Below, piece after piece: positions 33,001 through 42,000 of a stretch of DNA of 64,000 nt (the stretch's first letter is position 1; the number at the start of each line of letters is the position of its first letter). The stretch is from Actinomycetota bacterium (lineage in GTDB: Bacteria > Actinomycetota > Actinomycetes > S36-B12 > CAIYMF01). The stretch spans positions 16,057 to 80,056 of the forward strand of contig JAPLAU010000029.1 in assembly GCA_026393115.1 (NCBI GenBank). Direction: 5' to 3'. A program made the position numbers.

Positions 33001-36000
33001 GAGGCTTCTTACCGTCTGCCGAAGCAATCCGCGTGATTGCACCTGTGGTCCCTTCGCCCGCCAACACGCCAGCGCTTGAATTGCCCGTACCAAGTCCGGC
33101 TTCGGCCACGTAGAGGGTGTCATTTTCGGCAAGTGCAAGTCCGCGCGGATTGTTCAGGCCCGTGGCAATCACGTCGTATCGGGGCGATGGCGACGGCGTC
33201 ACTGGGCGAGCGTTCGCCGCTGCGGGTACGGCCGCGACGCACGCAGCGCAGATCACAGCAATCGGAACTAGCAGGCGTGCGGGGCGAGATGAGCGGGCCA
33301 TGAGCTCCTCCAACGATGTCAGTTGCCTCACCTTGACTGGCTAGATCACCTCTGCGCCACCGTGGAAGCACGGTGATGAGTGACGAGTGCGCGCAACATG
33401 GTTCCTGACCCGACAGCCGGCGGACTGTGGCACAGTAGGCCAGCCCGCTGACTCACTGGAAAAGGTCACCATGCCGCTCGTCGTGCTCGTCGCACCGCCG
33501 CGTTCAGGCGCGACCTTACTGTCACTTGCACTCACACAGGGTGAAGGCTGGGCGGCGTCGAGCTCAAGCCTGAGCGCCGCCGTCGACTCGATAGCTGGCT
33601 TCAGAACGACAGACCGCGGCTTGGCATCCGATCGGCTGACTGCAGCTGACGCCACCCCCGAACTGACTGCGGCACTGCAGGCAGCCGCACCGCCCAGCGA
33701 CGAGGTGTTCGTCGAGTGGTCGGCGCGCTCCTCAATGCAGGTGGGCCTGATTGCGCAGGCACTGCCCGACGCCAAATTTGTCTTCCTCACGCGTCGTCCA
33801 CTGATGACCGTGTCGTCATCGATGGTCGCGTGGTCGAGCGGCCGATTTGTGTCGCAACCGGATCTGCCCGACTGGTGGGGTGACCGCTGGTCATTCCCGC
33901 TCATCGATGGGTGGCGTGAGTTGATCGGTGCACCACTGGCGCAGGTGTGCGCGACCCAGTGGAACACCATCACCAATGCAATTCTCGACGACCTCGCTGA
34001 ACTACCGCCTGATCGCTGGACCGTCTCCTGCTTCGAGTCACTGGTGGAAGACCCCGCCGCGGAGGTCACGCGCATCGCGCACGATCTCGGGCTGGCGTGG
34101 AGCGGGCAGATGCTCGACCCGCTTCCACCGACGCTCACGTGTGTCACACCGCCCGAATCTCGAGCATGGCGCGGTAATGCCAGTGAGGCGATGACCGCAC
34201 TGGAACCACGCGAGACCACCGTCATGCGCATGTTGAGCGCCGCGCAGGAGCGAGTTCCCGGGTTCACGGGTGCGGGTTCCCGACCCTCCCCGGAAGCACC
34301 TCACCCCTGACCAAGGGCTCCATCCGGTACAAGACCGAAACCAGCTACAGCGTCCCGTTGTAAGTCTGGCGTGCCGCACGCCTCACCCAACAAGGGCCGC
34401 AACTCAACTTTGAGGTTGCACGCCTTAGAACCTTCGGTGGACAGTGGTATCAGAAACGGTATCACCGTGGCATACTGGACGCATGGCCATGACTCTCAGA
34501 CTCTCCGACCAAGATTCCGCCGCGCTTAGTCGGCAGGCTGAGCAGGAGGGCCGTTCCCAGGCAGAGATCATCACTCAGGCTGTGCGCGAGTACGTCGAGC
34601 GTGCGAGTCGCCGCGAACTCCTCGATTCCGTACTCAACGACGAGTTACCTCGCTACGCCGAAGCCCTCGAACGCCTCGGGCAATGATCTACCTCACCCTA
34701 GAAGAACTGCTGTACGTCGCCGAGCGCGCAATCGGCGCGCCAGTCGAACTGCGCGACGCCGGGCTGCTCGAGGCCGCGGCCGCCCGCCCACGTGCGAGTG
34801 CGTTCGGAGCCGACGCCTACCCCGACTTACACGCCAAAACGGCAGCCCTGCTTCTTTCGATCTGCCTCAATCACGCACTCATCGACGGCAACAAGCGACT
34901 GGCGCTTGCGGGAGCAATTGCCATGATCGGAGTGAACGGATGGCATTTGACTCTCACCAACAACGAGGCCTACGAGTTGGTCTTGTCGGTAGCGACGGGC
35001 GCGATGTCGACCGTCGACGAGGTGGCCGATGTTCTTCGCAGAGGATCGCAGCACAGATGAAGGACCAGCTCGCGTGCGATCTCTGATACAAATGACCACA
35101 CCCACGACGCTAGGAGCCTGACGTGCCGTTCCTCATGACCCACTTCTATCCAGGTGGCACGGCCGAGCAGTACGCGGTTGTTCTCAATGCAGTGCACCCC
35201 GATGGCGCGCTTCCTGCTGGCCAGCTCTCGAGCGCTGCCGGACCGTGCGACGGCGGCTGGGTCATCAGTGCAATCTGGGAATCGCGCACCGCATTCGAAA
35301 CGTTCGTGGTCGAGCGACTCATGCCCGCGTTGAACGGAGTCGAGGGCGGTTTCACTACTGCCCCGGACGAACACCTCGCAGAACTCTCGCTCTACCAAAC
35401 GGCCTAGCAGCACAGACGCTGCGCCTCTAGGGAGACACCAATGATCGACGACACGCTCGCATCAGCACACGACAACTTGTACGCAGCGCTGAATGTGATG
35501 CTCACCGGAGACCCCGCGCCCGTTCAGGCAGCATGGTCGACGAGCGATGACGTGACGTACGCCGGACCGTTCGGCGGCTTCATCAAGGGTCGAGACGCCG
35601 TGGCCGACGAGTTCGCGCGTTCTGCCGCGATGAATCTTGGTGGTCGCATCGAGGTGACCGACGTACACATGGTCGAGGGCCCTGACCTGGGCTACACCAC
35701 GTGCACCGAACACGGAATTGATCACGTCATCAACGGCCAACGGGTGAACATCACGCACCGTGCGACCAACGTGTTTCGTCGTGAACCGGGTGGCTGGAAG
35801 CTTGTGCACCACCACACTGATCACTCGTCCTAGTCGACGAGCTGTGGGCGACCTTCGTTCGTGCTTCCACCTGCATGTGGCAGCGCAGGCGGCGCAGCCG
35901 GCGGCTCTTCGGCTTCACTCAATCGACTGAGGTCTTCACGCAACTGCACGTGCGGCCCAATCAACACACCGATCAGTGCGATGGCTGCCACACCCGCGAG

Positions 36001-39000: not shown

Positions 39001-42000
39001 CATTCCAACAACGGTACCCACCTCGTCACGCACCGCGCTCTTCACTGTCCAGAACACCCGCTCTTCACCGGTTTCCTCGATGATGTTGCGTTCCTCGCGG
39101 CTCACAGTGTTACCCGTGGTCAGGACTTCCTGATCGTTAGCGCGAAGTTCGTTAGAACGATCTAGATCGAAGAACTCACTGTCATCCTTGCCTACGATGC
39201 CAGCAAGGTCGGCACCGAAGAGTTTCTGCACCGACCGGTTGGCGTAGGTGTAATTACCGTCAAGATCCTTGCTGTACACATAGGCCTTGAGTGTGTCGAG
39301 AATGTCTTCGGCGTCCATACGGTCTCCTCGCTGGTGGTGGGGTCATCCCGCTCGCACGGCACCCATGCCGAGAGACTCCACGAATCGCGACCATAACACC
39401 ACAAGAGGACCTTGAACCGGTCGTTGGCTTCTGGTGGCCCTCGCCACCGTGCCAGCACGGTGCCGACCCCAATGCTCGACGCTAGCCTTGGCAGTGTGCC
39501 CAGGTCCGAAGTGCCGCAGGTTTCTTCGACCGACGATGCCGTACGCGCGCATGGGTGGCGATGGGACGACCGACTCGCGCACACACTGCACATCAACCAC
39601 GCTCCACCAACTGCCAGCGATGAGGCAGACCTTGCGGCTTGGCGAAAGAATATTGACCCCGATGCGCTCGGCACCTTCGACAAGCGTTTGGCATGGAGCG
39701 GCCTTACCGCCACCGACGCCGAGGCGCTGATCGCGGCCCAACCCGACACATCCGCAGACGACTGGTGGCCCGACCTTGTTGAACTGCGCGCCACTTGCCG
39801 CATCGCTGCTGAGGGTAAGGCATCGAACGCCCACTGGCTGGCCGAGATGGACGAGTCGATCCCACTCGGAGTGAGCGCGGAACCCATTCCTTTCGCCCAT
39901 CTACTCTGGCCGATTGCCGCGTGGGCGTGGACGTCGCTGAAGACGCGCATCGATGCGGCATGTCTCACACACGTCACCGCGACGGCACGTGATGATCTGC
40001 GGCGAGCACTTCTGGTGCGACTCTCCGGTTTGATCGATCGGGCCGTGACTGAAGACTTCACCCGCAACCGAACGGCGGGACAGTCCCTGATGTTGCGTCT
40101 CGGCGCGCCGGACACGTTCGACACGACCTCCCAGGTCACCTACGCAGCGTACTGTCGCGAGAACCTCGGTGATGGACTTGACCGGCTTCTCAGCGAGTTT
40201 CCAGTGATGGGTCGCATCATCGCGGTGGCGTGTCGTCAATGGCGTGCCGCGGTCACCGAACTCCTTGAGCGTGTCGATCGCGATCGACCACTTCTCTACA
40301 CCGAGCTCGGTATTGCCCAGGCGTCAGTACTTAAGCAGGTGCAGTGGGGCCTCAGTGATCCGCATCGCGGTGGTCGAAGCGTGGCGATTGTTGTTTTCGC
40401 GGTTGGCGACACCCAACGCGAAGTGGTGTACAAGCCCAAGGACATTGCGATCGAACAGAAGTTTCATCAGTTCGTCACCCACGTCGTCGGCCAGAGTGCC
40501 GGTCGCATCGAGCCAGCTGTGCGCACGGTGCGGTGCGACGACTACGGATACGTCTCGCGCGTGACCCACCTGCCCTGCACCCCCGACCAGTACTCCGACT
40601 TCTACCAATGCGCCGGTCGACTACTCGCCATCCTCTATGTGCTGGGCGCAAACGATTGCCACTACGAGAACCTCATCGCGCACGGGCCTACCCTGCACCT
40701 CATCGACGCCGAGACGCTGTTCGAAGGTAAGAACGTGTCGATCGGTTCAGCGGAAGTCATTCGCGGCCCCGATCCACTTGAGGCCTCGGTACTTCGAGTC
40801 GGGATGTTACCGACATGGATTCTCAGCGCCGCCAATTCGCCTAGTGATGTCAGTAGCTTAGGCATCGATTCGTGCCAGCCAGAGCGGGCACCTGTCCCCG
40901 GGTGGCGTTACGTGAACACTGACGCAGTTGTGTGGGCTACTCGCCCTGCCACAGGTGCCCAACCACATAGCCTGCCGGTGGATGGTCGTTCGCCGAACCC
41001 GCTGAGGCACCATGTCGACGATCTGATCGCCGGCTTCACCGAACTCTATGAGACTGCAATGCGGCCCGAGGTCTCAGATTTCGTTGTGTCGGCCATCGCC
41101 GACTTCAAAGGAGTGCGCCGACGAGCCATCTTGCGCGCAACAAACGTCTACGCGGTAGTGAATAGACGCGCGACCTCCGCGGCAGCACTGCGCTCGGCGC
41201 GTGTGCGCGGCTTCGAACTCGACCTACTTTCACGCAGTTCCCTCGTGAGTGACGAACGACCAGCCCTCTGGGATGCATTTCTCGCAGAACTGCATGACTG
41301 CGAGAACCTCGACATTCCGTACTTCGACTACCCCCTTGGGTCGATGGACATCGACGGAGGTCACCGTGTCATCAAAGGTCTTCTTGAGCACGACGGCCTC
41401 TCTCAAGCGATCACGCGAACGCAGTCTCTCTCCGCCGATGACCTCGCGTGGCAAGTGCGACTTATTCGTGGCTCCATGGCCGCGCGCTACGGCTCAGAAC
41501 GCGAGTCGAGTATTGAGATGGTGCGCGCATCTGAGGATTCACGCGACACCCGGGTACGCATCGCTGATGCCAACTCACTTCGCGACAGTCTGAAGTTGAC
41601 GGCCTTTCCCGACCGAACCGGAGCACCCAGTTGGTTGACTCTTCTACCCGTCAGTGGCAGCGACGTTGATCGCTACCGATTCGACGTGGTCGACTCCGGC
41701 CTCTACGCCGGTCGAGTGGGCATCGCCGCGTTTCTCAGTACTAGTAACGAACACGAACACGTCGCTTTCGCGCACGAGGTCGTGGCACCGGTAGTGCGTG
41801 TCCTCACAAGCACCGACGAGTTCGAGAGATTCCGATTCATGCGTGAGAGCGGGTTGGGGATGGCGGGTGTCGGCGGATTCCTGCGCGCGCTCGACCTATT
41901 GGCCCGCACCGAACTCGCTGCGTCGATCGACTTCGCGGCTCTGACTCGCACTCTCATGAACTCGATTACCGCTGAGGCAGTAGCCAAGGATCGAGCACGC

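Follow-up and report, generated by a model that had tools for sequence, protein, structure and literature searches.

What holds together a string of five closely spaced minus-strand genes in an actinobacterial genome, and does this string belong with the lanM gene from which it diverges? The genome (Actinomycetota bacterium, here G000) comprises 3.51 Mb in 34 contigs and is 95% complete; the window analysed is a stretch of 64,000 nucleotides from it (contig C12:16057-80056). At 35830-39318 of the window, the string encodes, in order of transcription, a stand-alone PAS protein, a PrsW-family intramembrane protease, a 68-amino-acid (aa) zinc protein that we refer to as ZnR, a small winged-helix-turn-helix (wHTH) protein and an MFS transporter. 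An earlier note on this DNA had read the string either as a regulated-proteolysis signalling module or, together with lanM, as an unconventional locus for a ribosomally synthesized and post-translationally modified peptide (RiPP). Here, we suggest a reading in which the PrsW, ZnR and wHTH genes alone make up the unit, and in which this triad may be a signalling cassette at the cytoplasmic face of an intramembrane protease, with ZnR coupling the protease to a regulator. We give this reading a probability of roughly 45%.

The five genes lie as the earlier note described them, with short gaps of 31, 39 and 45 bp and one overlap, and the question is which of them stay together elsewhere. PrsW orthologues (59-94% identical) occur in only 6/41 related genomes, spread over four genera in three families, and in each of these six genomes tblastn places ZnR and wHTH directly downstream of PrsW. 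G001, of the same genus, is the only one in which homologues of PAS, MFS and LanM stand beside the triad. A pattern scan of ~186,000 species genomes with the ZnR alignment returned 25 loci, all from metagenome-assembled genomes (MAGs) of freshwater or estuarine Actinomycetota, several of them labelled Candidatus Nanopelagicales. PrsW is upstream of ZnR in 25/25 of these loci, running off the contig end in two, and wHTH follows ZnR in 24/25 by tblastn and in 25/25 by clustering of open reading frames (ORFs). In L047, PrsW has come to be divergent from ZnR-wHTH yet is still adjacent. The stop codon of ZnR and the start codon of wHTH share an ATGA at 37602-37605 in the window, and the same overlap is found in 24/24 related loci in which the junction was read, suggesting that wHTH is translationally coupled to ZnR. 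All-against-all clustering of the flanking ORFs of the 25 loci gave no further conserved gene; 75 neighbour proteins from 21 loci are housekeeping (PNPase, ThyX, cytochrome bd, ribonucleotide reductase, DnaE and others), and of the 80 Pfam families that they match, the 25 most frequent include no sigma factor and no RiPP enzyme. Likewise, no operator-like sequence upstream of PrsW is conserved across all loci. Gene calls in the fetched loci are ORF heuristics and most of the genomes compared are MAGs; absences are therefore provisional. Because the order is kept in 25/25 loci and no other neighbour is conserved, we regard the triad as a functional unit. The conserved unit is the triad only, while PAS, MFS and lanM are additions of the source genus, and the arrangement is beyond chance for the middle three genes only. 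Of the checks that the earlier note had proposed, conservation of the triad is borne out across several families of freshwater Actinomycetota, whereas lanM accompanies it only within the same genus. Four triad-bearing records (L019, L029, L033 and L034) are titled 'Bifidobacterium breve' or 'Bordetella parapertussis' and look mislabelled.

ZnR (37602-37808, minus strand) is by far the most constrained gene of the triad. Identity across the loci is 70-100% for ZnR, 50-94% for PrsW and 29-98% for wHTH, and the ratio of nonsynonymous to synonymous divergence (dN/dS) of ZnR is ~0.02-0.06 where calculable and 0.1-0.2 in the most distant loci, compared with 0.13-0.30 for PrsW and 0.19-0.53 for wHTH. 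Because ZnR dN is low (0.03-0.09 in the closer loci) while synonymous sites are saturated, this conservation reflects selection and not recent transfer. The three CxxC pairs that the earlier note had seen are at residues 3-6, 14-17 and 52-55 and are joined by C22 and H25; all eight residues (C3, C6, C14, C17, C22, H25, C52 and C55) are invariant in the ZnR alignment, which suggests two zinc sites. In the AlphaFold2 (AF2) model (predicted local distance difference test, pLDDT, 87.7), N-terminal zinc knuckles are followed by a beta-hairpin and an extended proline-rich C-terminal tail, RPQPEPIAMPELT (37605..37643, minus strand; pLDDT ~63), in which P57, P59, P61, P65 and E66 are invariant.

No curated family matches ZnR above its cut-off. 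The closest likeness is to DUF2180 (PF09947), a family of uncharacterised archaeal small zinc proteins whose N-terminal pattern M-x-C-x-x-C..C-x-x-C-G-x-x-x-C-x-x-H recurs in ZnR, but all ZnR scores stay below the 22.2-bit cut-off (12.4 bits for the window ZnR, 20.8 for the M50-linked ZnR described below), and full-text literature searches found no paper that mentions DUF2180. The N-terminal half of ZnR also resembles, weakly and below threshold, B-box/AN1-type protein-interaction zinc fingers. A structure search with ZnR gave nothing significant (best PDB match E 3.4), and searches of PDB-chain sequences with ZnR, wHTH and PrsW were empty or insignificant. The family is rare: a set of 5.8 billion proteins contains 17 clusters of it, none with a name other than 'hypothetical protein', and a profile search of 1.84 billion representatives gave 199 matches. 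One 112-aa protein from the representative library, P0052, joins a ZnR N-terminal half to a wHTH C-terminal half ending in LNIWEALGDKVE; it may be a genuine fusion or a chimera made during assembly. We did not rely on the apparent fusions of ZnR in this library, which resemble frameshifts or chimeras.

ZnR is also found beside a second protease, unrelated to PrsW. In a profile search, ZnR was present in 42/401 Actinomycetota genomes, and 4 of the 30 loci fetched are of the PrsW type. The other 26 encode a sister ZnR subfamily (MDCWHCRRTAVGxCRFCGRGxCEDH...TPRPDPxxLPELD), in which the P-x-P-x-P..PEL tail is kept as well. In 26/26 of these loci, ZnR adjoins a gene for a large protein that combines the core of an M50/site-2 protease (HELGH...LDG) with two domains for binding cyclic nucleotide monophosphates (cNMP); the M50-cNMP gene is upstream of ZnR in 25/26 and downstream in one (L051). 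In most of them, a tiny Lys-rich ORF and then a Crp-like gene follow ZnR, and Pfam confirmed the M50-cNMP and Crp/Fnr domains on one locus, L075. Among metagenomic loci, L041 has a 1000-aa M50 protein followed by ZnR, L080 the order ParA-like, ZnR, 136-aa wHTH-like protein and M50, and L082 ZnR followed by an apparent M50 N-terminus. In L083, ZnR is followed by what appears, as judged from the sequence without a family-library scan, to be an extracytoplasmic function (ECF) sigma factor. L078, which encodes a distant ZnR relative without the proline-rich tail, has no adjacent protease. Overall, tail-bearing ZnR genes adjoin a PrsW or M50 intramembrane protease in nearly every locus examined.

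Some features of the M50-type loci stand on their own. In the M50-cNMP loci (L075:7800-8190; equivalents in L048-L073), a perfect CRP-type box, TGTGACGCGCGTCACA, comes after ZnR and precedes the Lys-rich ORF, which is conserved (MAEKKIxPK..., 42-53 aa) and itself upstream of the Crp-like gene. The M50-type ZnR locus of L080 lies beside a Frankia_peptide-type small ORF and a radical SAM/SPASM gene (L080:5827-8213), that of L041 beside a protein with a weak Frankia_peptide match (L041:509-1693), and a B12-binding radical SAM gene flanks L040; these neighbours may hint at an association with RiPP genes.

Both types of protease share a short motif with the small regulator. In the window, the PrsW tail carries SIWGALDE (residues 317-324; 37960..37983, minus strand), a motif of the form G/S-hydrophobic-W-x-x-L the position of which is conserved in the orthologue alignment, and GLWARLND (residues 339-346; 37894..37917, minus strand), where P337, G339, W341 and L344 hardly vary whereas the disordered region around them does. 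The wHTH protein ends with a similar motif, GLWGTLND (37282..37305, minus strand; P99, G100 and G101 nearly invariant, L106 invariant), and carries GMFERVEG at its N-terminus (37570..37593, minus strand), a motif present in 16/17 orthologues with F7 invariant. The core of this W-motif, hydrophobic-W-x-x-L, occurs in 38 copies in 21 PrsW tails against a mean of 3.6 in composition-preserving shuffles (0/2000 reach 38), and its density there is ~12-fold above that in the 75 neighbour proteins, although these counts are not phylogenetically independent. Among the M50 proteins, W-motifs stand on the cytoplasmic N-terminal extensions in L041 (GGSLWEALAG), L080 (ESIWKILEE and NIWSSIKE) and L082 (SSLWRTLDK) and in 8/10 of the cNMP type, e.g. 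RGLWDELAERLD, directly before a conserved FRP...RWGxDYAM domain. wHTH-like C-termini in other contexts end similarly (NIWEGLDD in L039, DIWKSLDE in L080). G-hydrophobic-W-x-x-L is thus common to the disordered cytoplasmic extensions of both protease types and to the end of wHTH, and the constants across contexts are a ZnR with a proline-rich tail and a W-motif on the disordered cytoplasmic extension of the protease.

The protease itself (363 aa; 37840-38931, minus strand) is the only PrsW-family gene in G000 and matches PF13367 over residues 30-197 with 84 bits (cut-off 23.5). E72, E73, K76, H138, H175 and N179 are invariant in 21 orthologues; they make up the EExxK, His and HxxxN motifs, which, by analogy with B. 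subtilis PrsW, we take to be catalytic. The equivalog model for the B. subtilis protein, NCBIfam NF033739, gives 23 bits against a cut-off of 225, and the protease therefore classifies as a member of the PrsW family and not as a functional equivalent of B. subtilis PrsW. AF2 predicts seven membrane helices, and a structure search with the full model gave only weak, non-significant matches, namely to seven-helix proteins of the APH-1 and TMEM147 type. Judged by the positive-inside rule from three loops rich in Arg/Lys (23-28, 85-91 and 154-160) and from the segment that follows residue 209, the N-terminus would be outside and the tail inside. In this predicted topology, the candidate catalytic residues would lie toward the outer leaflet and the tail (residues 215-363; 37843..38289, minus strand) would be cytoplasmic, as the earlier note had it for a tail of 150 aa. 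The tail has no match to a Pfam family. It is predicted to form a helical domain at ~240-308 (10-residue block means of pLDDT 72-89 over 241-310), with the conserved blocks LLDxFExRYG and LRRxIGxFxMMWLRSHLP, and then a disordered end (<50 over 313-363); the W-motifs fall in the regions with pLDDT <50.

The regulator end of the cassette is less certain. The wHTH protein (37276-37605, minus strand) has the length, 109 aa from its ATG, and the acidity (isoelectric point 4.67) that the earlier note had given it, but its match to MarR-type regulators (PF12802, MarR_2; PF01047) reaches only 23.4 bits, below the cut-off of 27. A winged-helix fold is likely, while membership of the MarR family is not established, and a word-based homologue search with wHTH returned only two clusters.

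Based on these data, we suggest the following model. ZnR would act as an adaptor that binds the W-motif; we infer this role because the motif is common to two unrelated proteases and wHTH, and because ZnR is the sole protein present in all contexts. ZnR would either tether wHTH to the protease tail, thereby sequestering it at the membrane, or switch between tail and wHTH in the manner of partner switching. On sensing a signal from the membrane or envelope, the protease could then change the free pool or the activity of wHTH. In the source genus the cassette would also be wired into a peptide-signal regulon with a LuxR-type regulator, a kinase, a Nif11-like peptide, lanM and the MFS gene. In a wider form, which we hold to be possible but doubtful, ZnR would be a portable two-zinc adaptor reading G-hydrophobic-W-x-x-L; the motif would have been acquired independently by PrsW-type proteases, M50/site-2 proteases and the cognate regulators, and ZnR would replace the membrane-anchored anti-sigma factor, linking the proteases to winged-helix, Crp-type or sigma regulators, while its Cys-rich zinc sites could add redox or metal sensitivity.

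Several observations weigh against this model. The putative recognition helix of wHTH is acidic, neither basic nor conserved, and the protein may not bind DNA at all. The small wHTH is missing from the M50-cNMP type, and in L039/L040 the ZnR-wHTH pair is preceded by a gene for a ParA-like ATPase, with no protease anywhere on the contig. The cassette includes no gene for a membrane substrate, and because the catalytic residues of PrsW face the outer leaflet by predicted topology, in line with extracytoplasmic site-1 cleavage in B. subtilis (PMC3498285), the cytoplasmic partners are unlikely to be substrates. To these points is added the dependence among the W-motif counts mentioned above. Of the signalling module proposed earlier, with the zinc-ribbon protein or wHTH as effector, the conserved triad and the invariant catalytic residues remain; what is missing is a sigma/anti-sigma pair, as no gene beyond ZnR and wHTH is conserved and ZnR is without a membrane segment, and the mechanism is an inference.

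Two other readings keep the triad as a unit, and we regard each of them as unlikely. In the first, ZnR (through its C-terminal tail) or wHTH (through its terminal motifs) is a substrate that is clipped by the protease, much as SpoIVFB clips pro-sigma-K, and thereby activated or destroyed, while the motifs on the protease are docking or pseudo-substrate sites. The strict conservation of the catalytic residues fits this, as does a P-x-P-x-P..PEL tail that is predicted to be extended and is kept in both the PrsW-linked and the M50-linked subfamily. M50 proteases, moreover, have their active sites near the cytoplasmic face. However, the same tail would need to be recognized by two unrelated proteases, the catalytic residues of PrsW would face the outer leaflet, ZnR has no membrane segment, and in B. 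subtilis, where a PrsW-family and an M50 protease process RsiW one after the other, site-1 cleavage takes place outside the cytoplasm (PMC3498285).

In the second, ZnR and the acidic wHTH are inhibitor or activator subunits that gate the protease from the cytoplasm; the substrates would be membrane or exported proteins encoded elsewhere, and there would be no transcriptional output. This would account for an acidic wHTH without a conserved basic recognition helix, for the lack of a substrate gene in the cassette and for the cNMP-binding regulatory domains on the M50 type, and the faint similarity of ZnR to protein-interaction zinc fingers is in line with it. By contrast, the third partner in the M50 type is a bona fide Crp-type DNA-binding regulator (L075), and ZnR of L083 lies beside an apparent ECF sigma factor, both of which point to transcriptional output.

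The signalling reading that we prefer can be set against known systems, and full-text literature searches found no description of a module of PrsW or M50 with a zinc-ribbon and a winged-helix protein, in agreement with the earlier note, which could not match the combination to a described system. The anti-sigma domain of RsiW has been reported to bind zinc. In this respect RsiW parallels ZnR, and the PrsW-RsiW-sigma-W-RasP pathway of B. subtilis further resembles the cassette in that its two protease families are the two found beside ZnR and in that its site-1 protease is of the same family (PF13367), the twin-Glu and His motifs being intact here. It differs in that the cassette has neither a sigma factor nor a membrane-anchored anti-sigma factor, in that the partner here is a soluble 68-aa protein without the HxxxCxxC motif of zinc-binding anti-sigma (ZAS) proteins, and in that B. 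subtilis PrsW lacks the 150-aa cytoplasmic tail of the window PrsW. SpoIVFB is an M50 protease with a cytoplasmic CBS domain that clips pro-sigma-K, a soluble, non-transmembrane protein. This system combines, like the cassette, an intramembrane protease that has a cytoplasmic regulatory domain with a soluble transcription regulator and comes closest to the M50-cNMP/ZnR/Crp variant; here, however, the cytoplasmic domains are cNMP-binding or novel helical tail domains, ZnR is extra and no pro-sequence is evident. RsrA-type ZAS proteins are likewise small, cytoplasmic, Cys-rich zinc proteins encoded beside a possible target regulator, but ZnR has neither the ZAS motif nor the helical fold, being predicted to consist of zinc knuckles and a beta-hairpin, and its partner is a winged-helix or Crp-type protein and not a sigma factor, except perhaps in L083.

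What, then, of the outer genes of the string? The PAS protein (115 aa; 38971-39318, minus strand) matches PAS_4 with E 1.2e-17 and the MFS transporter (466 aa; 35830-37230, minus strand) MFS_1 with E 2.7e-13. None of the five string proteins matches a defence model in PADLOC. The MFS gene is convergent with a SnoaL-like gene (35441-35833, plus strand), and their stop codons overlap by 4 bp at 35830-35833. On the other side, lanM (plus strand, from 39412 or 39472 to 42774) encodes a full class II lanthipeptide synthetase, as supported by TIGR03897 with 594 bits (cut-off 304) and by DUF4135 and LANC_like domains in a Pfam scan. The divergent PAS and lanM genes are 93 bp apart if lanM starts at the TTG and 153 bp apart if it starts at ATG 39472, the two values that the earlier note had given as a range.

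A palindrome, ACCGTG-N4-CACGGT, connects these genes. It occurs in six copies in G000, all intergenic, while the reversed control pattern has none; the consensus is CCACCGTG-N4-CACGGTGG, and four copies lie 8-35 nt before a predicted start codon. Three copies fall within 6.1 kb around the triad: ACCGTGGAAGCACGGT at 37239..37254, 8 nt before the GTG start of the MFS gene; a second at 39446..39461, 10 nt before ATG 39472 of lanM and 128 nt upstream of the PAS ATG; and a third at 33359..33374, 12 nt before the GTG at 33387 of a sulfotransferase gene. Because the second copy falls within the initial 20 codons of the ORF as read from the TTG, and ATG 39472 follows 10 nt after it, this ATG is the more plausible start of lanM. 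The first is the core of a hairpin with a 17-bp stem (-27.5 kcal/mol, z -5.15) that directly follows the wHTH stop codon and separates the MFS gene from wHTH. Some copies have 12-14-bp arms with different flanks, and for this reason selection of the palindrome as a hairpin is also possible.

The remaining copies are at C26:48441, C30:66403 and C33:40230 (L084-L086). That on C30 is upstream of a Nif11-like peptide ORF and is followed by a gene for a 535-aa secreted protein. The C30 locus (L085; C30:63365-66400) encodes a response regulator of the LuxR type (C30:63365-64030), a histidine kinase of 671 aa and, convergent to them, the 92-aa Nif11-like peptide, which is the only one in G000 and has neither a Cys nor a double-glycine (GG) site. 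L085 has its orthologous counterpart beside the triad in both G030 and G441. Behind the triad of G030 come the orthologous kinase and regulator, then a divergently oriented gene for a Nif11-leader peptide (84 aa, ...GDISGG/GGTSPW), HlyD and an ABC exporter with a C39 peptidase; palindromes are found ~80 nt ahead of PrsW and immediately behind the peptide gene. G441 has the arrangement kinase, regulator, palindrome, Nif11-leader peptide, palindrome, PrsW. The Nif11-leader peptides of the two genomes (L022:8034-8288 in G030; L026:4703-4984 in G441) have a double-glycine site, and their cores are short, lack Cys and have W as the last residue (GGTSPW and HPPKPNASDTPGTTGPSGW, respectively); they look more like peptide pheromones than lanthipeptides.

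Of the genomes tested, the response regulator is encoded by the five that are rich in palindromes (G000, G001, G002, G030 and G441) and by no other; it is missing from G019, with one palindrome site, and G025, with none. Because these distributions match, the palindrome is probably bound by the LuxR-type regulator, whose targets would then include the cassette, lanM and the MFS gene. wHTH was also considered as the binder and rejected, as its putative recognition helix is acidic and is not the same in all genomes that have the palindrome.

That PrsW, MFS and LanM form a single lanthipeptide cluster, with PrsW for leader removal or immunity, the MFS protein for export and LanM for modification, is in our view very improbable. 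The divergent lanM next door, the palindrome common to lanM, the MFS gene and the operon, and the triad beside Nif11-leader loci in G030 and G441 speak for it. A further point in its favour is that no C39-type exporter was detected in G000, where tblastn with a C39-ABC exporter matches ATPase domains only. Abi/CPBP proteins, moreover, are known from bacteriocin immunity. CPBP-like and M50 proteases do act in secreted-peptide circuits, where MroQ, a PrsW relative of the CPBP/Abi type, and the M50 protease Eep mature the peptide pheromones AIP (autoinducing peptide) of S. aureus and SHP (short hydrophobic peptide) of streptococci, respectively (10.1101/2021.12.29.473670; PMC3150281). The cassette resembles these systems in lying beside Nif11-leader peptide loci in three lineages, but they have neither a ZnR nor a small wHTH, and the peptide association of the cassette is lineage-specific. 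Against a single cluster, lanM, MFS and PAS are missing from 24/25 related neighbourhoods, where the neighbours are housekeeping genes. No Cys-containing precursor was found next to lanM or anywhere in G000, although in a genome that is 95% complete this proves neither its absence nor that of a C39-type exporter, and the C30 peptide lacks both Cys and a GG site. Nif11 peptides above the cut-off occur in 0/14 genomes with M50-type ZnR, and a single RiPP cluster would leave ZnR and wHTH without a role. Canonical Nif11-leader lanthipeptide precursors do exist in the same-genus G002 and the more distant G025 (GG/TSVCVWNAIRQSSTW and GG/TDSLVISACVVCV).

Co-occurrence gives the same answer on a larger scale. 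Among the 41 relatives, LanM is found in G000, G001 and G030, all of them triad-positive, but these represent only two genera; G030 is the only triad-bearing relative outside the genus with LanM, which is on a different contig from the triad. In 251 genomes of the order, Nif11 peptides are present in 6/10 ZnR-positive genomes and also in 26 ZnR-negative ones (Fisher P 4e-4 by genome, 0.15 by genus). An apparently perfect co-occurrence of triad and Nif11 in the 41 relatives (P 8e-6) was not upheld in this larger set, where it is not significant by genus, and was set aside. The unconventional RiPP locus of the earlier note fails as a unit, since lanM, PAS and MFS stand beside the triad only in the same genus. 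The opposite conclusion, that the linkage with lanM is coincidental, holds in part: outside the genus lanM does not go with the triad, but the palindrome common to lanM, the MFS gene and the PAS-PrsW operon suggests a linkage that is regulatory and lineage-specific, which within the lineage would not be pure coincidence and which does not generalise. Finally, that the string is a chance assembly without any functional unit is hardly credible, as only its variable flanks fit such a view while the order, coupling and co-inheritance of the triad hold across families with saturated synonymous divergence.

To our knowledge, the present understanding of regulated intramembrane proteolysis comes almost wholly from systems with membrane-anchored anti-sigma factors or precursors of transcription factors. 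The cassette has neither; instead, two unrelated protease families are paired with the same tiny zinc protein and the same motif, and the cassette would be a variant of this type of signalling with an undescribed core component. If ZnR reads the motif, membrane proteases would be connected to cytoplasmic regulators by a compact route that can be tested, and a first function would be assigned to a family that is related to DUF2180. Freshwater Actinomycetota, the carriers of the cassette, are abundant but largely uncultured, and little is understood of their secreted-peptide circuits of the Nif11-leader and lanthipeptide kinds, to which the cassette may be wired in some lineages.

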